Shown piece by piece: positions 2-42,578 of a DNA stretch of 43,133 nucleotides. The stretch comes from Candidatus Eiseniibacteriota bacterium. GTDB lineage: Bacteria > Eisenbacteria > RBG-16-71-46. The position numbers and the translations under genes were made by a program. A model generated the notes under the pieces. The model was not told the origin of the DNA. It searched no databases and was given only the letters and a program-made list of their open reading frames with translations. The DNA lies in NCBI GenBank assembly GCA_034678345.1, contig JAXDBZ010000302.1, forward strand, positions 1 to 43,133, written 5' to 3'. How positions within the stretch are numbered: position 1 is the first letter of the stretch; every line of letters starts with the position of its first letter.

Positions 2-2830
2 ATCACGCAGGAGGAGTTCGAGCAGCGCGTCCGGGCCGGCATGGCCGAGTACCGCGCGCGGAACCGCAGCGACCTGCCCGCGGAGATCGTCCCCATCGCC
101 CGCCGCCAGATGCTCGAGAGTCTCATCCGCCGGGAGCTGCTCGTGCTGGAGGCCAGGCGGCGGGGCTTCACGGCCAGCGTCGAGCAGGCCGAGGCCCAGC
201 TGCGACGGGACCCCTTCTTCCAGGTGAACGGCCGCTTCGACCCGGCGCGTTTCGAGCAGGCGCGGCGCGCGAATCCGGCGGCCTTCAAGACGGTGCTGCA
301 GTCCACCCGCGAGGGCATCGCGGCGCGCAACCTGATGGAGCGCGTCGAAGCGGAGAAGGGTCCGAGCGAGGCCTCCGTCCGGGCGCGGGCGACGCGCGAG
401 CTGAGCCAGGCCGACGTGGACTACCTGGCCCTGCGCTTCGGCGACTTCGACGGTACCTTCCCCGAGCCCCGGGAGAGCGACGTGCGCGCCTTCTACCTGA
501 CCCACCAGGCGGACTTCCAGCGGCCGCAGCGGGCCAGCCTGTCGGTGGTCTTCGTGGACCAGCCCGCCCTGAGCGACTCGGAGGCGGCGCGGCCCGAGGA
601 CGTGGCGCGTTGGACGGAGCGGATGCGGGCGACCGCCGACAGCATCCTGGCCGCGGTGCGGGCGGGCCAGTCCCTCGAGACCGCGGCAGCGTCGCAGGGC
701 GGGCCGCGGCCCCACCAGGTGGTGATGCCGGACAACTTCCCCCGCTACTGGCAGGGCGGTCCGGCCGCGCGCGCGGCGGTCTTCGCGGCCGCCAACGGAA
801 CCGTCCTGCCCGAGCCCGTCCCCGCGCAGTCCGGATGGCTCGTCGTGCGGGTGGACGAGGTGCGGCCCGCGCACGTCGCGGCGTTGGACGAGGTGGCCGC
901 CGACGTGCGGAGCCGACTGCGGTCGGAGAGCCGCCGTACGGCGGAGGACCGGGAGCTGCGGCAGCTGTACGAGGGCATGCGCGACAGCCTCCGCAGGACC
1001 GCGTACCGCCTGCGCTACGTCGCGGTGGACACCGGCGCGGTGACCGTCCGGCCGCCCGGACCGTCGGACATCGACCGGTTCTACCGGTCCCATCTCGCGG
1101 ACTACTCCAGCTTCGACGCGCAGGGCGGGGTGCGAGCGAAGAGCCTCGACGAGGTCCGTGACGAGGTGCGGGCGCGCTGGCTGAGCGAGCGGCGCGTGAC
1201 CCTGGCTCGGGAGCTGGCGCAGCGGCTGCACGACACCTGGCGACGGGGGCGGCGCGACGCCCGCCTCGAGCAGCGCCTCGGAGCGCGCGACGTAGGCCCG
1301 GCCGTGCCGGGCTCGCCCGCCGATACCGGGCGCTTCGGCCGCATCCTCGGGGATTCGCTCTCGGGCGCGGCCGCCGCCGCGGGGCCGACGGTGGTACGCA
1401 CCCCGTCGGGGTGGCTCGTCTACCACGTCCACGACACCGTGCCGGACTGGGTGCCGGCCTTCGAGCAGGTGCGCGCGGAACTCGCCGGGCAGCGCACGGC
1501 GATGCGGGAACAGGAGGACGAAGCCGGCGCACGCGCCCTGTTCGCGGCATCGCCCGGGCGCTTCGCCGGCGGCGAGGTCATCCACTACACGCGGGCGTTC
1601 ATCCCGGTGGGCGAGGTCCCGGACGTTCCCCTGACGCGCGCCGAGGTCGAGCGCTACCACCGCGAGCACATCGATCGTTTCTCGGCCCCGGAACTGGTGC
1701 GGGCCAGCCACATCCTCATCAGCCCCACGGATCCGACCCCGGCCGCCGACGCGCAGGCGAGGGCGCGTGCCGACAGCCTGCTCGAGCGCCTGGGCGCGGG
1801 CGAGGACTTCGAGCAGATGGTCGCCCGCGTCACCGACGACCCGGCCACACGCGACAACGGTGGCGACCTCGGCCTCTTCGCGCGCGGCTCCATGTTGCCC
1901 GAGGTCGAGCGGGCGGCCTTCTCCATGCGGCCGGGCGACCTGAGCAGCACCCCGGTGAAGAGCGCCGTGGGCTACCACATCCTGAAGGTGCGCGAGTACG
2001 TGCCGAGGGTCGCGCGCCCCCTCAGCCAGATGTACGCCGACGTGGGCTGGATGGCCGCCGAGGCGAAGGCAGAGTCGCTGGCCGCGCGGCGTGCCGACAG
2101 CCTCCTGCGCGCGGTGCCCGACGCGCGCGCGGCACGCGCCGCCGCCCGGAAGCTGGACCTGCGCACCTACTCGTACAAGCACCCGCGCGGCGAGCGGAAC
2201 AGGTACCCGAGCGATCTGCAGAGCTACTTCCAGCGGCTGGAGATGATGAAGCCGGGACAGGTGCTGCCCCTCTCCCGCGAACTCGGCGGACTCGGCTTCG
2301 CGGTGACCTGGGTGGACAGCATCCGGCCACCGGAGATGCCCACGTGGGAGGAGAGCCGCGTCCAGGCGCTCCGCGCCTACCGCGCCGAAGCGGGACAGCG
2401 GGCCGCGCGGGCGAAGCGCGCCGAGCTGGACTCCCTCGAGGCCGCGGGGTGGTCCTTCGACAGCCTCGCCGCTGGATTCGGCGGCATGCAGCGCGTCACG
2501 GACTTCATGCCCGGCGCGCGACTGCCGGGCGTCGGCATCAGCGGCGTGCTGGACACCCTGGTCTTCGGGGCGCACGGCGGCGATGGCCTCGCCGTCGGAA
2601 AGCTGGGCGACTGGGTGGACCTGCCCGTGGCCCTGGTGCGCCTGCGGGTCGCGAGGCTGCATCCGCCCGATCCGGTCGCGCTGCAGTCGCGGGTCGAGAG
2701 CGACCGGCGCAACGAGACCGAGGCGGCGCTGAACACCTACTTCGAGGACCTGAAGCGGCGCTACCCCGTGCGCATCCTCGACCGGCAGCTCCGGCAGATC
2801 CAGCTGCCCCAGAGCCCGGCCCCACGCTGA
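2..2830 (+). CDS. Large PpiD/SurA-like chaperone with one parvulin-type peptidyl-prolyl isomerase domain; 5' end probably lies outside the window
   Basis: ORF 41..2830. The frame stays open back to base 2 (ITQEEFEQRVRAG precedes the first ATG). Parvulin block: SHILISP...GGDLGLFARGSMLPEVERAAFSMRPGDLS..VKSAVGYHILKV. G/C-rich third codon positions. Confidence 0.75.
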   Translation: MTQEEFEQRVRAGMAEYRARNRSDLPAEIVPIARRQMLESLIRRELLVLEARRRGFTASVEQAEAQLRRDPFFQVNGRFDPARFEQARRANPAAFKTVLQSTREGIAARNLMERVEAEKGPSEASVRARATRELSQADVDYLALRFGDFDGTFPEPRESDVRAFYLTHQADFQRPQRASLSVVFVDQPALSDSEAARPEDVARWTERMRATADSILAAVRAGQSLETAAASQGGPRPHQVVMPDNFPRYWQGGPAARAAVFAAANGTVLPEPVPAQSGWLVVRVDEVRPAHVAALDEVAADVRSRLRSESRRTAEDRELRQLYEGMRDSLRRTAYRLRYVAVDTGAVTVRPPGPSDIDRFYRSHLADYSSFDAQGGVRAKSLDEVRDEVRARWLSERRVTLARELAQRLHDTWRRGRRDARLEQRLGARDVGPAVPGSPADTGRFGRILGDSLSGAAAAAGPTVVRTPSGWLVYHVHDTVPDWVPAFEQVRAELAGQRTAMREQEDEAGARALFAASPGRFAGGEVIHYTRAFIPVGEVPDVPLTRAEVERYHREHIDRFSAPELVRASHILISPTDPTPAADAQARARADSLLERLGAGEDFEQMVARVTDDPATRDNGGDLGLFARGSMLPEVERAAFSMRPGDLSSTPVKSAVGYHILKVREYVPRVARPLSQMYADVGWMAAEAKAESLAARRADSLLRAVPDARAARAAARKLDLRTYSYKHPRGERNRYPSDLQSYFQRLEMMKPGQVLPLSRELGGLGFAVTWVDSIRPPEMPTWEESRVQALRAYRAEAGQRAARAKRAELDSLEAAGWSFDSLAAGFGGMQRVTDFMPGARLPGVGISGVLDTLVFGAHGGDGLAVGKLGDWVDLPVALVRLRVARLHPPDPVALQSRVESDRRNETEAALNTYFEDLKRRYPVRILDRQLRQIQLPQSPAPR

Positions 2831-7385: not shown

Positions 7386-7466
7386 TCTTCCGGATCCGAG
7401 GCGCGCTGGCGCGGGTGGGTGTCCCGCCGGCGCGCCGAGCCGTCGAAGGAGGCGCACCTGGCCACA

Positions 7467-8783
7467 GTGACGAGCGGACTCCCGGTGGTCGCCATCATCG
7501 GTCGCCCCAACGTGGGCAAGTCCACGCTCTTCAATCGGGTCCTCGGCGAGCGCCGGGCCGTGGTGCACGACCGGCCGGGCATCACGCGTGACCGCAACAC
7601 GGCCCGGGCCGAGTGGTCCGGCCGCTCCTTCCTGCTGGTGGACACGGGTGGCTTCCTGCCCGGCGCGGCCGAGGGGCGCGACGCGCACGTGCGCCGGCAG
7701 GCGGAGATCGCCATCGGGCTGGCCCAGGCAGTCCTGCTCCTGGTGGACGCCAAGACGGGGGTGACGGACCTCGATCTGGCCATCGCCCGGGACCTCCAGC
7801 GTCGCGGCGCGAGGAGCCTGCTGGTCGTCAACAAGGTGGACCGTGCGGGCGACCAGTCCGCGCACGACTTCCACGGCCTCGGGCTCGGTGAGCCGGTGCC
7901 GGTGTCCTCGGAGAACGGGCTCGGCATCGGGGATCTTCTGGACCGGGTCATCGCCCTCCTGCCGCGAGAGGCGGGTGACGGCGCCAGGCCGGGGCCCCAG
8001 GTGGCCATCGTCGGCCGCCCCAACGTCGGCAAGTCCTCCATCGTCAACGTGCTCCTGCGCGAGGACCGCGTCATCGTCGAGCCGCGCGCGGGGACGACCA
8101 TGGACCCCATCGACACGGAATGGCGCACGCCGGCGGGCACCTTCACGCTCGTGGACACCGCCGGGATCCGCCGCGAGGCGCGTTTCCAGGACGAGGCCGA
8201 GTTCTACGCCGTGGTGCGGGCCCTGAACGCCCTGCAGCGCGCCGACGTCGCCTGCCTGGTGGTGGACGCCGCGCAGGGATTCCTGAAGCAGGAGGCCCGT
8301 CTGGCCCACAATGCGCTCGATGCCGGCTGCAGCGTCCTGCTCGTCTACAACAAGTGGGATCTGGTGGAGGACCGCGAGGCGGCCTGGAAGCGCCTGGTCG
8401 CCGAGCGCGCCGAGCGGTACCCGACCCTGGCCGATCTGCCCGCGGTGCCGGTGTCGGCCACCGAGAGGATCAACCTCGGACGCCTGCCGCGCCTCATCCT
8501 GCAGCGCGCCGAGGAGCACGGACGGCGGATCCCGACGCCACGCCTGAACGAGTGGCTGGCGCACGTCCAGAAGGAGAGGGGGGTGCCCTCGACGCGGGCC
8601 GGGCACACGCCCAGGCTCTACTACGTGGCCCAGACCGGCACGGGACCGCCCGAGTTCACGTTGTTCGTGAACCATCCGCAGCGGCTCTCGCAGAACTACC
8701 GCCGCTTCCTCTGGCTGCGGTTCGCGGAGCACTTCGACTTCCACGGGACCCCGCTGCGCCTGCGGGTCCGCAAGAGCGACTGA
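7467..8783 (+). CDS. der: Ribosome-associated GTPase Der/EngA (two tandem GTPase domains plus a KH-like C-terminus)
   Basis: Two G1 motifs: VAIIGRPNVGKSTLFN and VAIVGRPNVGKSSIVN. The track start 7350 overlaps tRNA-Gly, so I chose in-frame GTG 7467 downstream of GAAGGAGG. The exact start is uncertain. Confidence 0.88.
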   Translation: MTSGLPVVAIIGRPNVGKSTLFNRVLGERRAVVHDRPGITRDRNTARAEWSGRSFLLVDTGGFLPGAAEGRDAHVRRQAEIAIGLAQAVLLLVDAKTGVTDLDLAIARDLQRRGARSLLVVNKVDRAGDQSAHDFHGLGLGEPVPVSSENGLGIGDLLDRVIALLPREAGDGARPGPQVAIVGRPNVGKSSIVNVLLREDRVIVEPRAGTTMDPIDTEWRTPAGTFTLVDTAGIRREARFQDEAEFYAVVRALNALQRADVACLVVDAAQGFLKQEARLAHNALDAGCSVLLVYNKWDLVEDREAAWKRLVAERAERYPTLADLPAVPVSATERINLGRLPRLILQRAEEHGRRIPTPRLNEWLAHVQKERGVPSTRAGHTPRLYYVAQTGTGPPEFTLFVNHPQRLSQNYRRFLWLRFAEHFDFHGTPLRLRVRKSD

Positions 8784-28649: not shown

Positions 28650-29765
28650 TCAGCGGGCCGCCGGCAGCCCCCTCCCGGTCACGAGGTAGGTGGCGAAGCT
28701 GCCCAGCCAGTGCCCGCCTCCGTAGTGCTCGGCCGTCACGTGCGGCAGGCTGGCCTCGCGGTGGGCCCGCGCGGCCGCCAGCAGGCCCGCGCGTCGCGGA
28801 TCGCCGCCCGGAAGGCGCGCCGCGATCCCCTCGAGCATCCAGGCGCGGGAGAGATTGAGGCCGTACAGGTGGATCAGCTTGCCGTCGCTCGGATCGCTGA
28901 CGACGCCCGGCGCCAGCCAGTCGCTCCGGCCGTCGTGCGGCAGGCCCGGCAGAAGGCCCTCGAGCCAGCGCGCGAACTCCTCCGGCGGCAGCACCCGGGC
29001 GACCGCGACGGCCTCCGCCAGGCAGGGGGAGAGGAAGTCCTCGCCCGACGGCTCGTAGTCGAGCGGGCAGTCCCGGTCCGCGAGGAAGAAGCGGCGGATG
29101 GCGGCCTCGAAGACGGCGCTGCTGGCCGTGTCGCCCGTCGCCCGGGCCCAATCGAGGGCGAGCCCGAGGGCGAAGGCCGTCTGGCTGTGCTCGCCCGCGC
29201 GCACCGGTCGCGTGAGCTTCGGCAGCCAGGTCGTGAGTCGCCCGGCACAGACGCGGGCCAACGGCTCGACGTCCGCGGCCCACGCGCGCGCCTGCGGATC
29301 GTCCCACTCGCGCAGCTCGGCGTGGAGCTGCAGCAGCCAGGCCAGCCCGTAGGGGCGCTCGAACGAGGCGCGGTCGGGGCCCTCCAGATAGCGGACCTCG
29401 GCGGCGAGGTTCGCCGGGGTGAGGCTCCTCGCGAGCGCGGCCCGCGCCCGGGGCGCGAAGGCGGCGCCCGGGTGGAGACGGGCCAACCGCGCCAGCAGCC
29501 AGTGCCCGTGCACGGCGGAGTGCCAGTCGAAGCAGCCGCAGAAGGCGGGCGTCAGTGCCCGTGGCGGCTGCGCGTCGGCGTCGCCCTGCATCACGTGGGC
29601 GATCTTGTTCGGGTACTCCTGGTGCACGCAGGCGAGGGCGAGGTCGGCGAACCGCGCGACCGCGGCCGCCGGCAGCGGCTCGTCCGCGCGCGCCGGAGAA
29701 GGGAGCAGGCAGAGGATCAGGGACAGGGCGAGGCCCGCGACCGCACGGCGATGGGAGAGGTCCAT
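28650..29765 (-). CDS. Secreted DUF2891-family protein
   Basis: Signal peptide MDLSHRRAVAGLALSLILCLLPSPARA. Blocks CVHQEYPNKIAHV and FCGCFDWHSAVHGHWLL match my memory of DUF2891. Confidence 0.65.
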   Translation of the reverse strand: MDLSHRRAVAGLALSLILCLLPSPARADEPLPAAAVARFADLALACVHQEYPNKIAHVMQGDADAQPPRALTPAFCGCFDWHSAVHGHWLLARLARLHPGAAFAPRARAALARSLTPANLAAEVRYLEGPDRASFERPYGLAWLLQLHAELREWDDPQARAWAADVEPLARVCAGRLTTWLPKLTRPVRAGEHSQTAFALGLALDWARATGDTASSAVFEAAIRRFFLADRDCPLDYEPSGEDFLSPCLAEAVAVARVLPPEEFARWLEGLLPGLPHDGRSDWLAPGVVSDPSDGKLIHLYGLNLSRAWMLEGIAARLPGGDPRRAGLLAAARAHREASLPHVTAEHYGGGHWLGSFATYLVTGRGLPAAR

Positions 29766-29863
29766 GGCCGGATGATAGCCTCCCGTCGACCACGAGGCGA
29801 GGGCCGGGACCGTCGGTCCCGGGAGGGCGGGTGGGGTATGCTGGCGGTCAGGAGGCCGACCCC

Positions 29864-31288
29864 GTGACCGACGCCGTACGCCGAGCCCCGCGCTCTCCCC
29901 GCCGGTTCGCACCGGAGTGGCTGCTCTTCGCCCTCGTGGCCGCCGTCCTCGTCTGGCAGCTCCTGCTGCCGCCCATCGTGGGGCTGGCGGACAACGGCGA
30001 CTTCGTCCGCGTGCTCGAGCCGCTCGGCCTGCAGCACGCGGCGACCGAGTGGGGCGAGCGCTACTGGAGCTGGCTCGACCGGACCTACGTGCCGGGACCG
30101 CGCCTGCCGGTGGATCTCGAGTCCTCGCAGCTGCTGCTGAGCCGGGCCGCCCAGGGCGTGGCCGGGCTCTTCCGGCGCGACGGCGTGCTGGACATCCGCG
30201 TGCAGGGCGCGCTGCACCTGGCCCTCTACCTGCTGGGCATCGCCCTCGTACTGCGCGCGGCGCGCACCTTCCGCGCCCCGGTCCGCGTCACGCTGGGCCT
30301 GGCCCTGCTGGTCGCCGCCACCGACGTGGCCTACGTCGCGCCCCTGAACTCCTTCTACGCCGAGGCGGCCACGCTCGTCTTCCTCGCCCTCACCCTCGGC
30401 TTCGGCCTCGTCGCCCTGCGGGAGGACGACGCGCGCTCCTGGGCCCTGCCCGGCTATCTCGCGGCCGCCGCGCTCTTCGTGGCGGCCAAGCCACAGAACT
30501 ACCCGCTGGCGGTGCCGCTGGCCGCCGTGCCCTTCGCGCTGCTGCCCCGGCTGCGGCGGACCACCACGCGCGTGCTCGCGGTGGTGGCGGCACTGCTCGT
30601 CATGGTCATGGCCTACGACATGCACTCGCGGCTGCCGTGGTCGCAGACCATCCGCAACCGCTGGAACGACGTCTTCTTCACCATCCTCGCCGACTCCCCC
30701 GATCCGCGCGCCGACCTGGCGGAGTTCGACCTCGACCCGACGCTCGCCCGTTACGCGCGCGTGCCGGCCTTCGCCGACTCGATCCCCATCGAGGAGGTGA
30801 CCGCGCGCTACGGGTTCGGCGACGTGCTGCGCTTCCACGCGCGGCACCCCGCGCGCTTTCTGCACACGGCCTCGGTCTGCGCCGAGAGCGCCTTCGTGTG
30901 GCGGGACCCGCGCCTGGGCAACTTCACGCGTGACTCGGGGCGCCCGGCGGGCACGCTGGCGCACCAGTTCACCGCCTGGAGCCGCCTGCAGGGGCTCGTG
31001 CTGCCCCGCTCGCTGGCCTTCATCGCGGCGTTCCTGGCCGCCGTCTTCGTGGTGGCCCTGGTGGAGGCCGTCCGGTCGCGGCCCGCGACGGCGGGAGGGG
31101 GCACCGCGCTCCTGTGCGCCGCCCTGGCCGTGGCCGCGGGGATGGAGTTCGGCATCTGCGTGGTGGGCGACGGTTACTACGACATCGTAAAGCACCTGTA
31201 CCTGTTCCAGCTGCTCTTCGATGCCTGCCTCTTCGCCGCCGTGGCGTGGCTGGCGGGGCAGGTGGCGGCCCGGCGGCCGGCCCGCTGA
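29864..31288 (+). CDS. Large polytopic membrane protein of unknown function (possibly a GT-C-like glycosyl/lipid transferase)
   Basis: GGAGG lies 8 nt before GTG 29864. About 10 hydrophobic segments. An acidic loop after TM1 (GLADNGDFVRV) is reminiscent of GT-C first-loop motifs. The function is inferred only. Confidence 0.5.
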   Translation: MTDAVRRAPRSPRRFAPEWLLFALVAAVLVWQLLLPPIVGLADNGDFVRVLEPLGLQHAATEWGERYWSWLDRTYVPGPRLPVDLESSQLLLSRAAQGVAGLFRRDGVLDIRVQGALHLALYLLGIALVLRAARTFRAPVRVTLGLALLVAATDVAYVAPLNSFYAEAATLVFLALTLGFGLVALREDDARSWALPGYLAAAALFVAAKPQNYPLAVPLAAVPFALLPRLRRTTTRVLAVVAALLVMVMAYDMHSRLPWSQTIRNRWNDVFFTILADSPDPRADLAEFDLDPTLARYARVPAFADSIPIEEVTARYGFGDVLRFHARHPARFLHTASVCAESAFVWRDPRLGNFTRDSGRPAGTLAHQFTAWSRLQGLVLPRSLAFIAAFLAAVFVVALVEAVRSRPATAGGGTALLCAALAVAAGMEFGICVVGDGYYDIVKHLYLFQLLFDACLFAAVAWLAGQVAARRPAR

Positions 31289-31292
31289 AGCG

Positions 31293-31320
31293 GGCGGGCG
31301 GGGCAGGCACCCCGCCCGCC
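31293..31320. terminator. Perfect 11-bp GC hairpin between convergent genes; likely a bidirectional terminator
   Basis: GGCGGGCGGGG (31293..31303), loop CAGGCA, CCCCGCCCGCC (31310..31320). Confidence 0.5.
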
Positions 31321-31325
31321 ACCGG

Positions 31326-32990
31326 CTACCACTCCCGGAAGAGGCTCAGCACGGCGCCGCGCACGTTGTAGAAGGGCGTCTCGCCGTAGTCGAGACGGGC
31401 ATTGAGCCCCCAGTGCGCGCCGAACCACTGCGAGTAGCCGACGTTGAAGCCGGTCGCGTGGTAGTCCACCAGCGCCTGCCCTGGCCCCACCAACAGGTAG
31501 GAGACGTCCCCGGCGTCGTAGCCGACGCCGATGGACATGCGCCGCCAGACGACGTAGGCGAGGCCAACGCCGCCCGACACGGAGCGCGTGTCGCCCGGCT
31601 GGCCCCAGTCGCAGCGTCCCTGGGCGCTCAGGATCCAGTGCGGCAGGTAACGCACCAGGCTCAGGCCGAGACCGTCGGAGCGGTTGTCACCCTTGCTCTG
31701 GATGCGCGTGTAGCCCAGCGTCGTCACCACCTCCGCGATGGGGCGGCTGACCGCGGCGTCGAAGCGGTAGCGGTGGGCGATGTAGTCGCCCGTGCCCGAC
31801 GAGACGCCTGCCGTGACGCTGGTCTTGCCGAACCAGTGCGAGTAGGACAACCCGCCATCGAGGCTCTCGTCGCCGAAGCGGGCGGACCGCCCCGCCTCGA
31901 AGCGCCACGCCCAGCGATCCTCACGCCACAGCCCGAAGCGCGCGAACTGGCCATCGGCGTCGCCGTAGCCGTTCGAGTAGTGGCCCCACGAGGCCCCGGC
32001 CTCGACCGAGCGCGTGAGCGGCGGCAGGTCCGCCGCGCCAGCAGTGCCCGCCACCGCCACCAGGAGCGCCAGCAGCGCCGCGGCCACGCCGGCGGCTCCG
32101 TTGCCGTTGCCCCCGGCTTCGCCCTGCCGCCGCGCCCACACGCGGTCCTCGAGACGCATCGGGTGGTGCCAGCTCACGCCCCACGAGTAGAACGAGACGA
32201 ACACCAGCACGTTCACCGTCAGCCCGAAGACGAAGAACATCAGCGGCATGTACAGCAGGGACAGGTGGTGGATGACGTAGGCGTGCGCGGCATACTGCAG
32301 CGGCACCAGCACGATCATGTGCAGCATCGTCATCACGGTGAGCAGGGCCTTGCGGGCGACCCCGAAGTCGAGCACGTAGTAGGTGAAGCCCAGCACGATG
32401 GGGACCAGGGCGACGAGCATGAGTTGGGCGATCAACATGCCGTGGACGTAGCCCGCCCCGTCGTAGGGGAAGGCCTGCGGCCAGAGGCCGAAGAAGATCT
32501 GCGCGCCCCCCTGGAAGAAGGCCAGCAGGCGCAGCACGTAGCGCAGCGGCAGGATCACCGGTGGCACGGCGTACGAGCCGAAGGCCAGCGCGAGGGTGAA
32601 CAGCAGGCCCCACCACCACGCCCCGCTGCCCGGCAGGCCCGAGGCGAAGCTCAGGAACGGCACATCGAACTCGAGCAGCCCGTAGAAGTCGTAGCGGACC
32701 AGCGACACCTGCCCGGGGATATCCATCAGGCCCTGCCAGGTCTCGAGCATGCCCGCCCACGCCCGGGCCACCGGCCCGAGCAGGAGCAGGTACGCGACGA
32801 ACAGGGCCAGCGCCAGCAGTGCGGCCGGCACGAGCTTCTCCCGCTGCACGGGAGAGACGCGCAGCGCCCGGTGTTCCGGGATGTCGCCGCCGCCCCAGCC
32901 CCGCCGGCGCAGGCGCAGGACCTCCTGCCGCGTCGCGGCATCGGCCCAGGGAAGCTCGGCGTCCAGCATCAGGTTGCGTGCGTTCGCCAT
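31326..32990 (-). CDS. Fusion protein: N-terminal ~7-TM inner-membrane domain, then an internal signal-peptide-like segment, then a C-terminal YaiO-like outer-membrane beta-barrel
   Basis: ATG 32990 lies 1 nt after the upstream stop. Residues ~70-290 (track ORF numbering) form six long hydrophobic helices. Then comes MRLEDRVWARRQGEAGGNGNGAAGVAAALLALLVAVAGTAGA|ADL. The C-terminal ~260 aa show alternating beta-strand patterns, resemble E. coli YaiO by eye (VEAGASWGHYSNGYGD..; TLGYTRI..) and end in an aromatic residue (..LSLFREW). Confidence 0.65.
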   Translation of the reverse strand: MANARNLMLDAELPWADAATRQEVLRLRRRGWGGGDIPEHRALRVSPVQREKLVPAALLALALFVAYLLLLGPVARAWAGMLETWQGLMDIPGQVSLVRYDFYGLLEFDVPFLSFASGLPGSGAWWWGLLFTLALAFGSYAVPPVILPLRYVLRLLAFFQGGAQIFFGLWPQAFPYDGAGYVHGMLIAQLMLVALVPIVLGFTYYVLDFGVARKALLTVMTMLHMIVLVPLQYAAHAYVIHHLSLLYMPLMFFVFGLTVNVLVFVSFYSWGVSWHHPMRLEDRVWARRQGEAGGNGNGAAGVAAALLALLVAVAGTAGAADLPPLTRSVEAGASWGHYSNGYGDADGQFARFGLWREDRWAWRFEAGRSARFGDESLDGGLSYSHWFGKTSVTAGVSSGTGDYIAHRYRFDAAVSRPIAEVVTTLGYTRIQSKGDNRSDGLGLSLVRYLPHWILSAQGRCDWGQPGDTRSVSGGVGLAYVVWRRMSIGVGYDAGDVSYLLVGPGQALVDYHATGFNVGYSQWFGAHWGLNARLDYGETPFYNVRGAVLSLFREW

Positions 32991-32991
32991 C

Positions 32992-34107
32992 TCAGGCCTT
33001 CCCTTCCGCGGCGCGGGGGAGCACGAGTCCGCCGCCATGCGCCCAGACCGTGCCGTGCGTCACGGTGCCGGTCTCGACCTCGAGGCAGCGCACGGTCACC
33101 GTGGTGGGGCGCCCGGCCGCGCCCAGCTCGGCCGCGGCGCCGACCCGGGCGTCGCGCTCAGCGACCACCGGCCCCCCGATGCGGCAGTCCGTCCCGATCG
33201 CGAGATCGCGCCCCGACACCACCGCGCCCTCGACAGCCACGCCGGATCCAAGGTGCAGGTCGCCATGACTCTTCAGGCTGCCCACGATCCTCGTGCCCTC
33301 GCCGACCACCAGCTCGCCGGTGACCACGATGTCCGACGTCACCAGCCGGTGCGCCGGGATCTCGAGCCCGCTCCGCACCAGCCAGCGGCCCGCCGCGTCC
33401 TCGACCAGGCCCGGCACGTCCTTCGCGGTCCACGGCGCGAGCGCGGCGCCGTCCGCGGGCGCTCCGCGCCCCGCCGCCGGTTCCCCGAAGGCCACGACCG
33501 GGGCGTTCAGACGCTCGAAGCGACAGCCGGCTGCGAGGCGCAGCGCCCGTTCGGCCGAGGCGCGTCCGTGCAGTGCGCAGGATTCCCGCGCCGCCAGCGT
33601 GCCCCGGGCGTGCAGCCAGCGCAGCGACCAGCAGCCGCGGTCGAGGCGCAGGTCGCCGTGCGACAGGACGGCGCGGCAGACGGTGCCCTCGCCGACCTCC
33701 ACGTCACCGCCCCCGTAGACCTCCAGCGGGAACAGCGCCCGGGCGGGCAGTCCCAGCCTCCCGGCGCCCACGGTAACCGCCGGACAGGAGATCGGACCGG
33801 CCGGCGGCACGGTCACGCGGGCCGGGGCGTCGTCGGGCAGCACCACGTACGGCGTGCCGTCCTCGAAGCGGCCCTCGATGGGGCCCCCTCCGGCTCCGCA
33901 GGCCGCCAGCGCCTCGCCCAGATGCCCACCGATCCACGCCTGGAAGGCGGTGGCGAAGTGACGGATGTCCACGTCGGCGCCGCGCACCACGCGCAGCGGC
34001 TTCACGTCCGTCCGCCGGCGCCACTCGAGGAGCGAGGGCAGCAGCGGCAGCGCCGCCCAGCCGACGAACAACGCCAGCACGCCGATGACCGCCAGGATCA
34101 TGGCCAT
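32992..34107 (-). CDS. N-terminally membrane-anchored beta-helix repeat protein (bactofilin/DUF583-like or hexapeptide-repeat-like)
   Basis: GAGGAGGA RBS 3 nt before ATG 34107. TM anchor MAMILAVIGVLALFVGWAALPLL followed by RRR. Repeats such as VVTGELVVGEGTRIVGSLKSHGDLHLGSGVAVEGAVVSGRDLAIGTDCRIGGPVVAERDARVG. Confidence 0.6.
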   Translation of the reverse strand: MAMILAVIGVLALFVGWAALPLLPSLLEWRRRTDVKPLRVVRGADVDIRHFATAFQAWIGGHLGEALAACGAGGGPIEGRFEDGTPYVVLPDDAPARVTVPPAGPISCPAVTVGAGRLGLPARALFPLEVYGGGDVEVGEGTVCRAVLSHGDLRLDRGCWSLRWLHARGTLAARESCALHGRASAERALRLAAGCRFERLNAPVVAFGEPAAGRGAPADGAALAPWTAKDVPGLVEDAAGRWLVRSGLEIPAHRLVTSDIVVTGELVVGEGTRIVGSLKSHGDLHLGSGVAVEGAVVSGRDLAIGTDCRIGGPVVAERDARVGAAAELGAAGRPTTVTVRCLEVETGTVTHGTVWAHGGGLVLPRAAEGKA

Positions 34108-35564
34108 GCGTCCTCCTCGTCGTTGATGGCGTGCGGATGATCGGTCTTCGACCAGCGCACCCGCGCCCCCGGTTCGCGCGGCCGCACCAGCTGCATCACG
34201 GTCTCGTGGGTGATGGTGAAGAGCCCGACCAGGAAGCCCAGCATGACCAGCGGCAGCAGGCGGATCCGCGCCCGCGAGCCGTCGAGGTACGAACCGGCGC
34301 TGACCTCGAAGAACGTCGCGAAGTTGCCGAGGACGCTGTAGGAGGTGACGATCAGGATGACGATCAACCCGGGCCGGTTCTCGCCCAGGTACCACAGCGC
34401 CATCGCCAGCAGCCAGCCGAGCATGACGATGGGCGACATCATGTAGACGTTGAGCAGCAGCCAGCCGTCGAGCTTCTCGCGGAAGCGCGTGCGCGGTCCG
34501 GCCAGCAGGTGCCCGGCGTGGGTGAAGAGCGCCTCGTTGTGTCCGCGCGCCCACCGACGCACCTGCCGCATCCGCTGCGGCCAGGTGGTCGGGACCTGCT
34601 CGTAGCACTCCGACCGGTTCTGGTAGACGGTCTTCCAGCCGCCGCGCAGCAGGCGGAAGGTGGCGTCGGTGTCCTCGGCCAGGGTGTCCACGCGCCAGCC
34701 GCCCACGCTCTCCAGGGCCCGGCGCCGCACCCCGCCCACCGTGCCGCCGTACTGCGGCACCAGCTTGAGGTTCATGCGAGCCTGCTGGTCCACCTGGTAG
34801 CCACCGGTGCGCTCGAGGTCGAGCAGCCGGGTGAGGAGGTTCCGCCCGACGTTGTGGGGGACGACGCGGCCCATGACGGCGCCCACCTCGGGGTCGAAGA
34901 AGGGCGCGACGAGCTGCTTGATGAGCCCGCGCCCGGGGATGTAGTCGGCGTCGAAGACCAGCGCGATGTCCGTGCTCACCAGGGTCATGGCGTCGCGGAG
35001 GGCCGCGGCCTTACCGGGCTCGCCCTTCCGGCGATGGTACGGGGTGACGACGCCCGGGTGGCGGGCCGCGAACTCGTCCACGATCGCGCCGGTCCGATCC
35101 TTGGAGCGGTCGTCGATCGGCAGGATGTGCAACCGGCCGGGCGGGTAGTCCACGTCCAGCAGCGCGGTCAGGATGCCCTCCATGACCGGCTCCTCGTTGT
35201 GGGCCGGGACCAGCACTGTGACCTCGGGCCAGTCGGCGGTGTCGATGTCGAGGTAGGGATGCCGCTGCGTCCCGTGCAGACGGTTCAGCGTGAAGCCGTA
35301 GTGACGGGTGGTGTACACGCAGATCACGAGCAGGATCGCGTAGAGCGGGTAGAGCATCGCCAGGATGTACCAGGGACGCTCGGGACGCTGGCCGACGGGG
35401 ATCGGCGCGTCCCAGGCCCAGGCGACCGCCACGGCCAGCAGACCCGCGGCGAGGAGGACCGCGGCCAGGCCCCCCGGCCGGAACCGAAGCGTCGGGAGGC
35501 ACGCGGCCGGGCGCCCGGCGGGGGCGGAACGACGACGGGCGGACATCCGAGGCAGGAAATTCAT
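34098..35564 (-). CDS. Processive membrane-embedded family-2 glycosyltransferase (PgaC/NodC/cellulose-synthase-like polysaccharide synthase)
   Basis: Two N-terminal and ~4 C-terminal TM helices flank a GT-A domain with VLVPAHNEE, PIDDRSKD, VFDADY (DxD), LAEDTDATF (ED) and RMRQVRRWARG (QxxRW). ATG 35564 overlaps the upstream stop (ATGA). Confidence 0.82.
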   Translation of the reverse strand: MNFLPRMSARRRSAPAGRPAACLPTLRFRPGGLAAVLLAAGLLAVAVAWAWDAPIPVGQRPERPWYILAMLYPLYAILLVICVYTTRHYGFTLNRLHGTQRHPYLDIDTADWPEVTVLVPAHNEEPVMEGILTALLDVDYPPGRLHILPIDDRSKDRTGAIVDEFAARHPGVVTPYHRRKGEPGKAAALRDAMTLVSTDIALVFDADYIPGRGLIKQLVAPFFDPEVGAVMGRVVPHNVGRNLLTRLLDLERTGGYQVDQQARMNLKLVPQYGGTVGGVRRRALESVGGWRVDTLAEDTDATFRLLRGGWKTVYQNRSECYEQVPTTWPQRMRQVRRWARGHNEALFTHAGHLLAGPRTRFREKLDGWLLLNVYMMSPIVMLGWLLAMALWYLGENRPGLIVILIVTSYSVLGNFATFFEVSAGSYLDGSRARIRLLPLVMLGFLVGLFTITHETVMQLVRPREPGARVRWSKTDHPHAINDEEDAWP

Positions 35565-36244
35565 GGCGCCACCAAGAGTCGGAACGAGCGGAACTGGGCC
35601 GTACCGTTGCGCACCGCCAGGTGCGGCTCGCGGTACCGCCCGGTGGGATAGCGCTGGTCCGAGCGGTACAGCCGCCGCCCATCCAGCCAGAGGTACACGC
35701 GGCCGTCGCGGACGGCGAAGGCCAGCGCGTGCCAGGTCGCGAGGCTCACCGCCTCGAGGGGCATGACCACCTTCAGTACGTAGTCGTGGCGGGCCACCAT
35801 GTGGCGGGCGCTCAGGCGCTCCAGACCGCCGAAGGCGACGGCACCGCTCTCGCAGGTCAGTTCGCGGCTGTCGCGCGTGAGCAGGTGCACCTCGGTGTGC
35901 CGGCCGGCGGAATCGGGCACGATGCGGACCTGCGTCTCGAGCAGGAAGTCGCCCCCGTGTTCGACCGGGCAGAAGTACACCGCGAAGTCGCCCCGGTCCT
36001 CGCGACCCTCGAGCAGCCCATCCGCGACCCGCCAGTCGCCCCAGCCCCAGGCCCCCGGGAAGGGCCCGTCGCGGAAGCTCCAGGACGACGCCTCGCGCCA
36101 GGGCATGCCCTCGACCATCAGGTCGGCCTCGCCCGACGTGCGCGGGACGCTCTCGTAAACCTGCCGGAACGCGCCAGGGCCCAGGCGCAGGACGAGCAGC
36201 AGGAGCACGAGCAGCAGCCCCAGGAGAAAGAGGAGCCGGCGCAT
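35561..36244 (-). CDS. Signal-anchored protein with a concanavalin-like jelly-roll domain (DUF1080/LamG-like)
   Basis: Leu-rich N-terminal anchor MRRLLFLLGLLLVLLLLVL. Then W..W.V.DG.L.G / DF.LE / V.LW.DG spacing (GDWRVADGLLEG, GDFLLETQVRI, GRVYLWLDGRRL), typical of DUF1080-type domains. Confidence 0.5.
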   Translation of the reverse strand: MRRLLFLLGLLLVLLLLVLRLGPGAFRQVYESVPRTSGEADLMVEGMPWREASSWSFRDGPFPGAWGWGDWRVADGLLEGREDRGDFAVYFCPVEHGGDFLLETQVRIVPDSAGRHTEVHLLTRDSRELTCESGAVAFGGLERLSARHMVARHDYVLKVVMPLEAVSLATWHALAFAVRDGRVYLWLDGRRLYRSDQRYPTGRYREPHLAVRNGTAQFRSFRLLVAP

Positions 36245-39290: not shown

Positions 39291-42200
39291 GTGCGCGACC
39301 GCGTCCGTACCCGTGTCCTCTGGCTCGCATCCGTGCTCTCGTTCGCCGTGCTGTCGGCCGCTCCCGTGTGGGCGGCCGAGCCCGCGCTGTGGCTGCGCTA
39401 TCCGGCCATCTCCCCGGACGGCAGGACCGTGGTCTTCAGCTACCACGGCAACCTCTGGTCCGTCCCGGCCGCGGGGGGGCAGGCCGTGGCGCTCACGGTG
39501 AGCGCCGCGCACAACACCCGCCCGGTCTGGTCCCCGGACGGCACGCGGCTCGCCTTCGCCTCGGACCGCCACGGGAACTTCGACGTCTTCGTCATGCCCG
39601 CCACCGGCGGCGAGGCGACGCGCCTCACGTTCCACTCGGCCGACGAGTTCCCGTCCAGCTTCACACCGGACGGGCAGCGGGTCCTCTTCGGCGGCACCGT
39701 GCTCGACGCCGCCACGAACGTGCAGTTCCCGGCCGGGGTGCTGTCGGAGCTGTACGCGGTGGACCTCGTCGGGCACATGCCCGAGCAGGTGCTGAGCACC
39801 CCGGCGAACTACGCCGTCTACGACTGGGCCGGCAAGCGGCTGGCCTACTCGGACCAGCGCGGCATGGAGATGGAGTGGCGCAAGCACGACAACTCCTCCT
39901 TCGCGCGCAACGTGTGGGTGTGGGACGTGGCCGCGAACCGGCACACGCGCCTGACGGACTTCGGTGCCGACGACCGCCAGCCGGTGTGGGGCCCCGACCA
40001 GGTCTCGCTCTACTTCCTGTCCGAGCGGAGCGGCACGTTCAACGTCTGGCGGCTCGACCTCGCCGATCCGGCACGGCCGACGCAGGTCACGACGCACGTC
40101 ACGCATCCGGTGCGGTTCCTCTCCAGCTCGCGGGCCGGCGACCTGTGCTACGGCTGGGACGGCGGCATCTGGGTGCGCCCCGCCGGCGCGACGGCCAGCG
40201 TCCCCGTTCCGGTGACCATCCCCGCCGACCGCCGCGACCGCGAGACGGCGCCCCGGGACGTGTCGGGAGAGATCTCGGAGTTCGACGTGTCGCCCGACGG
40301 GCAGGAGGTGGCCTTCGTCGCGCGGGGCGAGGTCTTCGTGGCCGAGGTCGAGCACGGCACCACCCGTCGCATCACGAACACCCCCGGGCAGGAGCGCTCG
40401 GTGGGCTTCTCGCCCGACGGCCGCAGCCTGGTCTACGCCGCGGAGCGCGACGGCGGCTGGAAGCTCTACCGCACGGACCTCGCCGACCCCGAAGAGCCCG
40501 ACTTCTTCAACGCCACGGCGATGAAGGAGACGCTGGTGCTGGGCGGCGACGCCGACGTCTTCCAGCCCCGCTTCTCGCCGGACGGCGCCGAGGTCGCCTA
40601 CCTCGAGGAGCGCACCGCCCTCAAGGTGCTGAACCTGAAGAGCGGGCGCTCGCGCACGCTGCTGCCCGGCGACGTCAACTACTCCTACACGGACGGCGAC
40701 CAGTGGTTCGAGTGGTCCCCGGACGGTCGCTGGCTGGCGCTCACCTTCCTGAGCCATGAGCGCTGGTCGGAGGAGGTGGGGCTCGTGCCCGCCTCAGGCG
40801 ACGGCAAGCTCGTCAACGTGACCCGTAGCGGCTTCGAGGACTCCTCACCCAAGTGGGCGCGCAAGGGCGAGGTGCTCATCTGGCTCACCGACCGCTTCGG
40901 CCTGCGCAACCAGTCGGGCTTCCCCAGCGAGGCCGACGTGCACGCGGCCTTCCTGACCCGCCGGGCCTACGACCGCTACGTCCTCGACGAGGCGGCCTTC
41001 GACCAGCTCAGGGCGCGCGAGAAGGAGGGGGAGAAGAAGGGCGAGGGGGAGAAGCCGGCCAAGGACAGGGGCCGCGATACCGCGAAGGCGGCGGTCAAGC
41101 TCCCGCCGCCGGTGGCGATCGAGTTCGAGGGGCTCGACGACCGCATCGTGCGCCTGTCCGTGGCCTCGGCCGACCTGGCGGGGGCGGAGCTCTCGGCCGA
41201 CGGCGAGACCCTCTACTACCTCGCCCGCTTCGAGAAGGGCTACGACCTCTGGAAGTACGTGCCGCGGAAGAAGGAGGCCAGGCTGATCGCCAAGCTCGGC
41301 GCCGACCGGGCGCGCTTCGCGCTCGACCGCGAGGGCAAGAAGGCGTTCGTGCTGGCGGACGGCAAGCTGTCCACGGTGGAGCTGGAGGGGGGCAAGAGCA
41401 CGCCGGTCCGGGTCGCGGCGCGGATGGAGCTGGACGCGGCCGCCGAGCGCGGCTACCTCTTCGACCACATCTGGCGTCAGACGCTGAAGAAGTTCCACGA
41501 CCCGGGCATGCACGGGGTGGACTGGGCGGCGACGGGCGCGGCCTACCGGCGCTTCCTGCCCTCCATCGACAACCCCCGCGACTTCGCCGAGCTGATCTCC
41601 GAGATGCAGGGCGAGCTGAACGCCTCGCACACCGGCGGGCGCTACCGGCCGACCCGATCCGACGGCGACGAGACGGCGGCGCTCGGCTTCTTCCCCGATC
41701 CCGCCCACCGCGGGGACGGCGTGGCCATCGCCGAGGTGATCGAGGGCGGCCCGCTGGGCAAGGCGGGCACGAAGGTGCGCGCGGGCGTCGTGATCGAGGC
41801 GATCGACGGCTCGCGCATCGCCGCCGGGACCAACTGGTATCGCCTCCTGAACCGGAAGGCCGATGCGCCGGTGCGCCTGGCGCTCTTCGATCCGAAGACC
41901 AACGGCCGCTGGGAGGAGACGGCGAAGCCCGTCTCATGGGCGGCCCAGCAGCGGCTGCTCTACCAGCGCTGGGCACGCTCCCGGCGCGAGCTGGTGGACC
42001 GGCTCTCGGGCGGCCGCATCGGCTACGCACACATCCGGGGCATGAACGACGGCGCCTACCGCGAGGTCTTCGACGAGATCTTCGGCCGCGCCGTGGACAA
42101 GGACGCCATCGTCCTCGACACCCGCTTCAACGGCGGCGGCAACCTCGTCGAGGCGCTCACTGTGTTCCTGAGTGGCAGGCAGTACGCCCGGAACACGCCG

Positions 42201-42578
42201 CGCGGCCGCCAGATCGGCTCCGAGCCCTCCTTCCGCTGGAGCAAGCCGTCCATCGTGGTGATGTCCGAGGGCAACTACTCCGACGCCCACTGTTTCCCGA
42301 TGGCCTACACCCAGCTGGGGCTGGGGGAGACCGTGGGCATGCCGGTGCCCGGCACCTGCAGTTCGGTGTGGTGGGAGCGGCTGCAGGACCGGGACCTGAC
42401 CTTCGGCATCCCGCAGGTCTCGCTCATCGACATGGAAGGCGACGTCATGGAGAACAAGCACCTCGACCCGACGCACCTGGTCGAGCCCGACCCGGCCGTC
42501 GTGGCCGCGGGGCGCGACCAGCAGCTCGAGAAGGCGGTCGAGGTCCTGCTCGGGAAGCTCCCGCCGCTCGCGAAGTAG
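39291..42578 (+). CDS. Secreted tricorn-protease-like S41 peptidase (PD40 beta-propellers, PDZ, and an S41 catalytic domain)
   Basis: Signal peptide VLWLASVLSFAVLSAAPVWA. Repeated PD40 motifs (ISPDGRTVVF, WSPDGTRLAF, FTPDGQRVLF, FSPDGRSLVY, FSPDGAEVAY, WSPDGRWLAL). PDZ: VIEGGPLGKAGTKVRAGVVIEAIDG. S41 blocks IVLDTRFNGGGNL and GNYSDAHCFP. GTG 39291 is chosen because the track start 39066 lies inside the upstream terminator. Confidence 0.8.
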   Translation: MRDRVRTRVLWLASVLSFAVLSAAPVWAAEPALWLRYPAISPDGRTVVFSYHGNLWSVPAAGGQAVALTVSAAHNTRPVWSPDGTRLAFASDRHGNFDVFVMPATGGEATRLTFHSADEFPSSFTPDGQRVLFGGTVLDAATNVQFPAGVLSELYAVDLVGHMPEQVLSTPANYAVYDWAGKRLAYSDQRGMEMEWRKHDNSSFARNVWVWDVAANRHTRLTDFGADDRQPVWGPDQVSLYFLSERSGTFNVWRLDLADPARPTQVTTHVTHPVRFLSSSRAGDLCYGWDGGIWVRPAGATASVPVPVTIPADRRDRETAPRDVSGEISEFDVSPDGQEVAFVARGEVFVAEVEHGTTRRITNTPGQERSVGFSPDGRSLVYAAERDGGWKLYRTDLADPEEPDFFNATAMKETLVLGGDADVFQPRFSPDGAEVAYLEERTALKVLNLKSGRSRTLLPGDVNYSYTDGDQWFEWSPDGRWLALTFLSHERWSEEVGLVPASGDGKLVNVTRSGFEDSSPKWARKGEVLIWLTDRFGLRNQSGFPSEADVHAAFLTRRAYDRYVLDEAAFDQLRAREKEGEKKGEGEKPAKDRGRDTAKAAVKLPPPVAIEFEGLDDRIVRLSVASADLAGAELSADGETLYYLARFEKGYDLWKYVPRKKEARLIAKLGADRARFALDREGKKAFVLADGKLSTVELEGGKSTPVRVAARMELDAAAERGYLFDHIWRQTLKKFHDPGMHGVDWAATGAAYRRFLPSIDNPRDFAELISEMQGELNASHTGGRYRPTRSDGDETAALGFFPDPAHRGDGVAIAEVIEGGPLGKAGTKVRAGVVIEAIDGSRIAAGTNWYRLLNRKADAPVRLALFDPKTNGRWEETAKPVSWAAQQRLLYQRWARSRRELVDRLSGGRIGYAHIRGMNDGAYREVFDEIFGRAVDKDAIVLDTRFNGGGNLVEALTVFLSGRQYARNTPRGRQIGSEPSFRWSKPSIVVMSEGNYSDAHCFPMAYTQLGLGETVGMPVPGTCSSVWWERLQDRDLTFGIPQVSLIDMEGDVMENKHLDPTHLVEPDPAVVAAGRDQQLEKAVEVLLGKLPPLAK

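Follow-up and report, generated by a model that had tools for sequence, protein, structure and literature searches.

Outer-membrane beta-barrel proteins are normally made as separate precursors, each with its own N-terminal signal peptide, and we know of no described natural example of a barrel synthesised as the C-terminal end of a polytopic protein of the inner membrane. Here we describe a gene with this architecture in a stretch of 43,133 nucleotides from a Candidatus Eiseniibacteriota bacterium (GenBank assembly GCA_034678345.1, contig JAXDBZ010000302.1; the whole stretch is referred to below as the window). The gene joins, in a single open reading frame (ORF), an unnamed domain of six transmembrane helices (6TM) to a barrel of the YaiO family through an internal segment that resembles a signal peptide. 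The 6TM-YaiO architecture was not found in the literature on internal signal peptides in bacterial polyproteins, on FbcH or on bactofilin-linked synthase systems.

The Bradyrhizobium cytochrome b/c1 precursor FbcH, reportedly the subject of work by Thony-Meyer, James and Hennecke in PNAS in 1991, is said to be split at an internal signal sequence. FbcH and the window protein are alike in that a polytopic inner-membrane protein is followed, within the same ORF, by the signal sequence of an exported protein, with two mature products in the case of FbcH. However, both FbcH products stay at the inner membrane, whereas the part released from the window protein would be a barrel that needs chaperones and the BAM machinery, and there is no sequence relationship between the two proteins.

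Among synthase-dependent polysaccharide systems, PgaABCD, BcsABC and the alginate, Pel and NfrAB systems all combine, as does the operon in the window, a membrane-bound GT2 synthase (of the PgaC or cellulose synthase type) with an outer-membrane barrel. In contrast to these systems, no TPR scaffold or cyclic di-GMP module (TPR, PilZ, MshEN or GGDEF/EAL match in Pfam and NCBIfam) was detected in the four proteins of the window's operon. Its beta-helix and 6TM components have no counterpart in them. The barrel in the window is also smaller, with 14 strands compared to 16-18 in the known polysaccharide porins. BcsA and BcsB of the AcsAB type similarly represent a synthase-dependent system in which an inner-membrane component and its Sec-exported partner come as one chain or as two genes, BcsB being sometimes part of one polypeptide with BcsA (PMC8892547). 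BcsB, however, stays tail-anchored in the inner membrane, whereas the window fuses a non-catalytic 6TM protein to an outer-membrane pore. If its predicted processing holds, the gene in the window would combine these known types, an internal-signal polyprotein and a synthase-dependent export operon.

The C-terminal 234 residues of the window protein correspond to a full-length member of the family typified by Escherichia coli YaiO (b0358). In E. coli K-12 (NC_000913.3, 380069-384616; locus L019), yaiO belongs to a same-strand cluster with yaiS (deacetylase), yaiP (GT2) and yaiX (acyltransferase disrupted by IS2), and its location behind yaiP and yaiX parallels the order in the window, where GT2 and beta-helix genes precede YaiO. 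In E. coli, unlike in the window, YaiO is encoded on its own and begins with its signal peptide, and a 6TM partner gene is lacking from the locus. No functional account was found in the literature on YaiO function and on yaiP and yaiS, the YaiO papers using the gene only as a PCR marker. The comparison of the two loci suggests that E. coli YaiO might also be the pore of a polysaccharide system, in this case a cryptic one inactivated by the IS element.

The 6TM-YaiO fusion and its predicted processing

The fused gene encodes 554 amino acids (aa) plus a stop codon, starting with MANARN; in the mechanical ORF list, the same ORF runs to 33038 (570 aa), which is the source of the numbering, such as M294, in an earlier note on this DNA. 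Its parts are as follows (K+R, Lys plus Arg):

31326..32990, minus strand: fused ORF comprising the 6TM inner-membrane domain, a linker, the predicted internal signal peptide and the YaiO barrel (ORF list, GC content at third codon positions (GC3), fused homologues)
32844..32990, minus strand: Arg-rich, predicted cytoplasmic N-terminal segment, aa 1-49 (conserved motif R..RG.GGG.I..HRAL; K+R counts)
32175..32843, minus strand: six-helix inner-membrane domain, aa 50-272, with a periplasmic beta-hairpin at aa 95-113 (AlphaFold2)
32097..32174, minus strand: basic, predicted cytoplasmic tail and Gly/Asn linker, aa 273-298, SWHHPMRLEDRVWARRQGEAGGNGNG, containing ATG 32159 and GTG 32141 (K+R counts)
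32031..32096, minus strand: internal signal-peptide-like segment, aa 299-320, AAGVAAALLALLVAVAGTAGAA (alignment with signal peptides of stand-alone YaiO)
31329..32030, minus strand: predicted YaiO-family 14-strand outer-membrane beta-barrel, aa 321-554 (TIGR04390 and AlphaFold2)

The window has a GC content of 73% and contains many chance ORFs. Within the fused ORF, GC3 is 0.90-1.00 (about 0.95) from 32980 to 31360, junction included, and the other two codon positions show no such high GC across this span. Because this signal is continuous through the junction, the fused ORF is the real coding frame; a chance ORF in GC-rich DNA is ruled out by the GC3 frame plot together with the homologues, of which P0001, P0002 and P0003 are full-length and fused.

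The C-terminal part is, by family assignment, a genuine YaiO and a predicted outer-membrane protein. Residues 328-554 match positions 2-230 of the 230 in TIGR04390 (YaiO family barrel domain) with 84.6 bits (E 9.7e-24; cut-off 32 bits), this part also matches Pfam OMP_b-brl, and precomputed PF19413 matches are present on homologues. The protein terminates in LFREW, with an aromatic last residue. In the full-length AlphaFold2 model, which was built on a 69-sequence alignment and has a mean predicted local distance difference test score (pLDDT) of 86.5, 14 beta-strands are modelled between aa 325 and 553 with pLDDT above 90. The closest structural fits of the barrel in Foldseek are the 14-strand OmpG (target-normalised TM-score 0.62-0.67) and the 14-strand CymA. 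The window protein departs from the stand-alone form with an N-terminal signal peptide that is typical of the family, in that its signal-like segment is internal, behind the 6TM domain.

For the N-terminal approximately 290 residues, no Pfam or NCBIfam family match was found. The model contains six transmembrane helices (50-89, kinked, 122-141, 144-169, 178-203, 211-242 and 245-272) with pLDDT above 90 across most of aa 50-272. Because the full-length Foldseek run gave barrel matches only, the N-terminal domain was also modelled on its own (pLDDT 84, predicted TM-score 0.75). The Foldseek search of the PDB with this confident model gave nothing significant (best E 0.23, TM-score below 0.25), and no PDB match to the 6TM domain was obtained by sequence profile. 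These readings bear out several claims of the earlier note: the single ORF without a stop between the two domains, which lies in one GC3 frame and recurs in relatives, and the YaiO-like barrel with an aromatic end. The 7-TM domain described there, however, is better viewed as six helices plus the signal-like segment.

The 6TM family comprises about 393 representatives at 50% identity, is unnamed, and has invariant H40 and R41 in its N-terminal segment. Across 34 homologues, the mean K+R count is 8.4 for the N-terminus and 3.4 for the C-tail; for the two short periplasmic loops, it is 0-0.4, and in the long first loop on the periplasmic side, 2.4 K+R contrast with 3.5 Asp plus Glu on average. 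This charge distribution places both ends of the six-helix domain in the cytoplasm, so that the hydrophobic segment that follows would have to cross the membrane from the inside to the outside, like a signal peptide. In P0191, a double zinc ribbon follows the 6TM domain directly, which is consistent with a C-terminus in the cytoplasm. Several other domain combinations were observed in the family: a beta-helix protein is joined to the N-terminus of the 6TM domain in P0080; P0120 combines the 6TM domain, a signal-like segment and GT2 in one protein; and in P0146, the 6TM domain and a signal-like segment are followed by two DUF11 repeats and a type IX secretion C-terminal sorting domain. In P0220, the 6TM domain is accompanied by an exported-looking C-terminal domain without a Pfam match.

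The window protein itself has a polytopic domain with a predicted cytoplasmic C-terminus, followed in frame by what appears to be the signal of an exported protein. The junction consists of the basic Gly/Asn linker and the signal-peptide-like AAGVAAALLALLVAVAGTAGA, after which comes AD. The uncharged stretch is 23 residues long, with a mean hydropathy of 2.0 and small residues at -3/-1, and two elements of a Sec signal are present, a hydrophobic core (VAAALLALLVAVA) and a site, G-T-A-G-A/A (here and below, a slash marks the predicted cut); signal peptidase I is predicted to act after A319 or A320. In the AlphaFold2 model, the junction (about aa 280-320) is of low confidence and contains a short helix (277-292) and the hydrophobic segment (298-312), neither of them packed on the 6TM bundle. 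The N-terminal signal peptide of a stand-alone YaiO, P0057 (...AAAAADLPPLTRSVE), can be aligned with the internal segment, and the cleavage regions correspond, with ...AAAAA/DLPPLTRSVE in P0057 and ...TAGAA/DLPPLTRSVE in the window. Judged by this alignment, the internal segment corresponds to the signal peptide that the stand-alone orthologues carry at the N-terminus. Every fused protein has a net-basic linker (K+R is 4 in the window and 2-8 across all fused homologues), a 16-25-residue uncharged stretch and small residues at -3/-1, with the same layout in 14 of the 14 proteins examined (-3/-1 motifs AGA, AAA, AWG, AAA, AEG, AHA, ADA, AQA, ARA, VRA and AHG). The length of the uncharged stretch is more in keeping with a cleavable signal than with a stable membrane anchor. 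The hydrophobic segment ends at about aa 314-319 and the first strand begins at aa 325, with at most about 10 residues between the predicted site and the strand, so that an uncleaved protein could hardly reach the outer membrane.

The short spacer, the lack of a conserved internal start and the conserved signal features best support a cleaved polyprotein, a reading to which we assign a probability of about 0.6. Under this scenario, the six-helix domain would insert in the inner membrane with both ends inside, and YaiO's own signal peptide, now internal, would cross from the inside to the outside as the seventh span and serve as an internal Sec signal. Signal peptidase I would then cut after TAGA or AGAA at the periplasmic face, and the freed 14-strand barrel would proceed to the outer membrane via the usual chaperones and BAM. 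The SurA-like gene of the window (2..2812), which encodes an outer-membrane biogenesis chaperone in this organism, counts in favor of this scheme.

Split and fused relatives

The relatives come from Candidatus Eisenbacteria, Gemmatimonadota and metagenome-assembled genomes labelled 'uncultured Fibrobacteraceae'. The closest loci share the synteny of the window (Zn peptidase, 227-aa protein, GT2, beta-helix protein, 6TM, YaiO, convergent WsfD/YfdI_N-like gene and DUF2891) and encode the two halves as two genes, each in its own frame. The 6TM stop and the YaiO start overlap by 4 nt (GTGA) in L001, L003, L008, L015, L017 and L018 and by 11-29 nt in L012, L013 and L014. The YaiO starts of the split loci are preceded by a Shine-Dalgarno sequence with a predicted pairing energy of -7 to -11 kcal/mol, and the stand-alone orthologues carry ordinary N-terminal signal peptides. 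The split orthologues, for example L001, L003/L004 (Candidatus Eisenbacteria, GCA_025357055.1) and L008, are 76-94% identical to the window at the protein level, with 88-94% for L001.

Fused ORFs are present in the window, in L007/L009 (same linker, two different assemblies, slightly different sequences), in L005, in L006, in P0083, in the clade of P0022, P0027, P0028 and P0076, where the spacer is only about 25 residues long, and in the deep clade of P0082, P0085, P0088, P0114 and P0131, separate representatives with less than 50% identity to each other. The YaiO domain is complete and above the cut-off in all 10 fused proteins tested, and 6TM-YaiO fusions account for about 8 of the 150 best family representatives (5%). 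Two YaiO gene calls, P0062 and P0067, start inside the 6TM tail (MMFIAFFGWGFSWRN...) or the Gly-Asn/Gly-His linker (VSRNGNGNGNGNGHGHGHGNG...); in both cases, a contig end or the gene caller has probably cut short another fused gene, and the number of fusions may thus be an undercount. Two long-read (MFD) metagenome genomes among the relatives look prone to indels: L016 (646-2370) contains several frameshifts in the 6TM and YaiO genes, and in L005 (9718-11227) the WsfD/YfdI_N-like gene is split into two ORFs.

Fused and split forms are intermingled in the neighbour-joining tree that was built from the 6TM domain, with the window sister to the split L001 and L005 sister to the split L003, and the two larger fused groups are each monophyletic. 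Fused forms occur at no fewer than six places on the tree, two of which are all-fused older clades. A stop codon and a ribosome-binding site between the halves, which the earlier note named as grounds for refutation if orthologues showed them consistently, are found in the nearest orthologues but not consistently, given this distribution. In close pairs, fused/fused as well as fused/split, the ratio of nonsynonymous to synonymous substitutions (dN/dS) is 0.10-0.25 in both halves, which points to purifying selection on each.

Outside the junction, the DNA of the window and that of L001 are 87-89% identical, and only at the junction do they align poorly. The junction of the window is shorter by 59 nt, and the stretch GGAAGGGAGCGCATCGTGA, with the Shine-Dalgarno sequence, start and stop, is wholly missing from it. 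Past the junction, the other two frames of the window contain no stop for about 85 and about 150 codons, unlike in any orthologue, and a one-base error therefore cannot restore the orthologous arrangement; a single-base frameshift or assembly error was rejected on these grounds. The linker (window 32097-32130 and the junctions of L001, L003, L005 and L008) is a Gly-Asn repeat of GGCAAC-like hexamers and has a different length in every relative. In the window, where there are only about two units, the repeat was not flagged by Tandem Repeats Finder. It is plausible that the linker is an indel hotspot adjoining the 4-nt stop/start overlap, and indels in the repeat could drive recurrent fusion and fission. 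The ancestral state is two genes coupled by the 4-nt overlap, from which a linker deletion would have taken out the stop, the start and the ribosome-binding site, merging the frames.

Alternative readings of the junction

Several observations weigh against the cleaved polyprotein. The nearest basic residues in the window protein (RVWARRQ) lie 10 residues upstream of the hydrophobic core, with the Gly/Asn spacer between, an atypical n-region, whereas in the other fused proteins Arg or Lys is found within 1-3 residues of the hydrophobic stretch. Of the textbook n/h/c layout reported in the earlier note, the h- and c-regions and the A-G-A/A site are present, and the n-region carries this caveat. 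The nearest relative, L001, is split, so that the window's fusion is young and has itself undergone little evolutionary testing. The count of independent fusion events is approximate because the tree carries no support values, and the genome that holds the L005 fusion was sequenced by nanopore and shows signs of indel errors, so that this fusion is to be treated cautiously. In addition, the window contains two in-frame GTG codons with moderate Shine-Dalgarno-like pairing, one in the linker (32141, 4 nt after GAGGA, -5.9 kcal/mol) and one within the signal-like segment (32087, 7 nt after GGAG, -5.8 kcal/mol), and the fused ORF of L006 retains a strong internal Shine-Dalgarno sequence (-9.5 kcal/mol) plus a GTG; together these leave room for separate translation of the barrel. 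If translation started internally, at either GTG or at ATG 32159, the barrel precursor would be made alone, the segment would be an ordinary N-terminal signal peptide, and the read-through product would be a by-product or a second isoform. The TTG/GTG behind a G-run in L022 (-8.6 kcal/mol) and translational coupling as the ancestral arrangement also speak for this possibility. We nevertheless consider it unlikely, given that both GTG sites pair more weakly than the real YaiO starts, the spacing at 32141 is short, GAGGA represents conserved Glu-Asp codons of the 6TM tail that are also present in split orthologues, and a signal peptide starting at 32087 would have no n-region. No Met or Val is conserved ahead of the hydrophobic stretch in the old fused clades, and credible starts at this location are lacking in L020, where the sole in-frame starts sit inside the stretch (-1.5 to -2.5 kcal/mol), and in L009, where none is better than -3.6 kcal/mol. 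ATG 32159, preceded by CACCACCCG, pairs at only -3.6 kcal/mol, in line with the absence of a Shine-Dalgarno sequence noticed previously; it was rejected as a conserved internal start, the Met being replaced by Leu in several split orthologues and absent in the fused P0003. Furthermore, as no stop codon follows the 6TM part, ribosomes on it would continue into the barrel in any case, and the cell would still make the fusion protein and have to tolerate it.

Alternatively, the fusion might reflect an error of assembly or consensus calling, or else a deletion that recently inactivated the gene in one variant of the population; it would then have no function. The split state of L001 and of most relatives is compatible with this explanation, as is the error-laden sequence of some metagenome-assembled relatives (the frameshifts of L016, the split WsfD-like gene of L005). 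We regard it as improbable, and the same applies to the assembly fusion of two genes suggested in the earlier note: the difference from L001 goes far beyond one base, with the stop/start/Shine-Dalgarno stretch absent, the junction shortened and the other frames open; elsewhere, the genes of the window tile cleanly; neither half is damaged or truncated, and each is under purifying selection; the signal-peptide features are intact; and clades with members below 50% identity retain the same architecture. Still another conceivable arrangement is an uncleaved tether, a single chain of six or seven inner-membrane helices and an outer-membrane barrel that would bridge the envelope. Such a chain would hold the exit pore right above the synthase complex, in an operon that lacks a periplasmic scaffold of the TPR type. 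However, the roughly 5-10 residues from the end of the hydrophobic segment to the first strand are far too few to cross the periplasm, as the earlier note already argued, and the P0022-clade spacer has only about 25; the conserved small-x-small motif would be unexplained without cleavage, and the split orthologues work with an ordinary free barrel. We give this arrangement hardly any credence.

The operon and its genomic setting

Four minus-strand genes, tightly coupled to each other, make up the operon, with the fused gene in last place; the first three are:

35561..36244, minus strand: operon gene 1, 227-aa protein with an N-terminal hydrophobic anchor (weak 3keto-disac_hyd, DUF1080-like, match on homologues)
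34098..35564, minus strand: operon gene 2, GT2 processive-type glycosyltransferase of 488 aa, PgaC/IcaA-, cellulose-synthase- and NodC-like (Glyco_tranf_2_3)
32992..34107, minus strand: operon gene 3, 371-aa protein with an N-terminal membrane helix and a beta-helix (weakly bactofilin- or hexapeptide-transferase-like)

The GT2 start overlaps the stop of the 227-aa gene (ATGA), and the stop of the beta-helix gene is located 1 nt before the ATG of the fused gene (TGAgATG). The GT2 protein matches Pfam Glyco_tranf_2_3 (E 3.6e-30) and, weakly, Cellulose_synt (24.5 bits, just below the Pfam cut-off of 24.7); its 112-bit match to TIGR03937 (PgaC_IcaA) is far below the equivalog cut-off of 422, so that it is not PgaC itself. 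A scan of the operon for promoters and terminators gave nothing meaningful. A perfect 10-bp GC hairpin, GCGGGCGGGG...CCCCGCCCGC, is located at 31289-31325, between the stop of the convergent WsfD-like gene (which ends at 31288) and that of the fused gene (31326); it has no T tail and was not called by the terminator scan.

The beta-helix gene holds the same position in all related loci, and the combination of the YaiO barrel with GT2 is kept in all those with a YaiO barrel. In the distant locus L021, for which none is called, the gene order is 6TM, GT2, beta-helix. As judged from this gene order and from the other domain fusions of the 6TM family, GT2, the beta-helix protein and the 6TM protein form a conserved trio, usually accompanied by YaiO. 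We infer that 6TM and YaiO are the inner-membrane partner and the exit pore, respectively, of an uncharacterised synthase-dependent polysaccharide system consisting of GT2, the beta-helix protein, 6TM and YaiO. A broader proposition, which we would treat as an even bet, is that the fusions represent a natural class of two-membrane polyproteins in which the barrel is delivered to Sec co-translationally as the seventh span of a polytopic protein, and that their repeated appearance marks the 6TM family and YaiO as obligate partners in an undescribed envelope-spanning polysaccharide export system without a TPR scaffold.

If the polyprotein is real, nature has provided a case in which to test whether co-translational delivery, followed by signal-peptidase cleavage at an internal site, still allows a barrel to get to the outer membrane. 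The fusions also provide Rosetta-stone evidence that ties the unnamed 6TM family to YaiO barrels, the GT2 synthase and the beta-helix protein, and would give the long-uncharacterised yaiO/yaiP/yaiX/yaiS locus of E. coli its first functional context. The operon might represent a new synthase-dependent polysaccharide pathway in Eisenbacteria, Gemmatimonadota and relatives.

With respect to the nature of the polymer, a gene for a UDP-GlcNAc 2-epimerase (Epimerase_2) adjoins the operon in the distant relatives L020 (2448-3599) and L021 (1506-2690), which hints at a polymer of the ManNAc type; no epimerase gene is adjacent to the operon in the window. A GGDEF gene is found near the operon in L005 only.

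Other genes identified in the window include:

2-2812: long SurA-like chaperone with SurA_N and PPIase domains, cut by the start of the window
4515-6263: MutL
7398-8780: EngA/Der
28650-29912, minus strand: DUF2891 protein (Pfam/NCBIfam)
29555-31288, plus strand: WsfD/YfdI_N-like glycan hexose transferase, convergent with the operon (NF051875, 345 bits)
39315-42578: Tricorn-like protease of 1087 aa with PD40 repeats

The SurA-like chaperone, MutL and EngA identify the window as chromosomal DNA of a diderm. Finally, the pair of WsfD-like and DUF2891 genes is also present in L001, and the YfdI_N-like gene is kept in L003 and L005; the two proteins may modify the same polymer.

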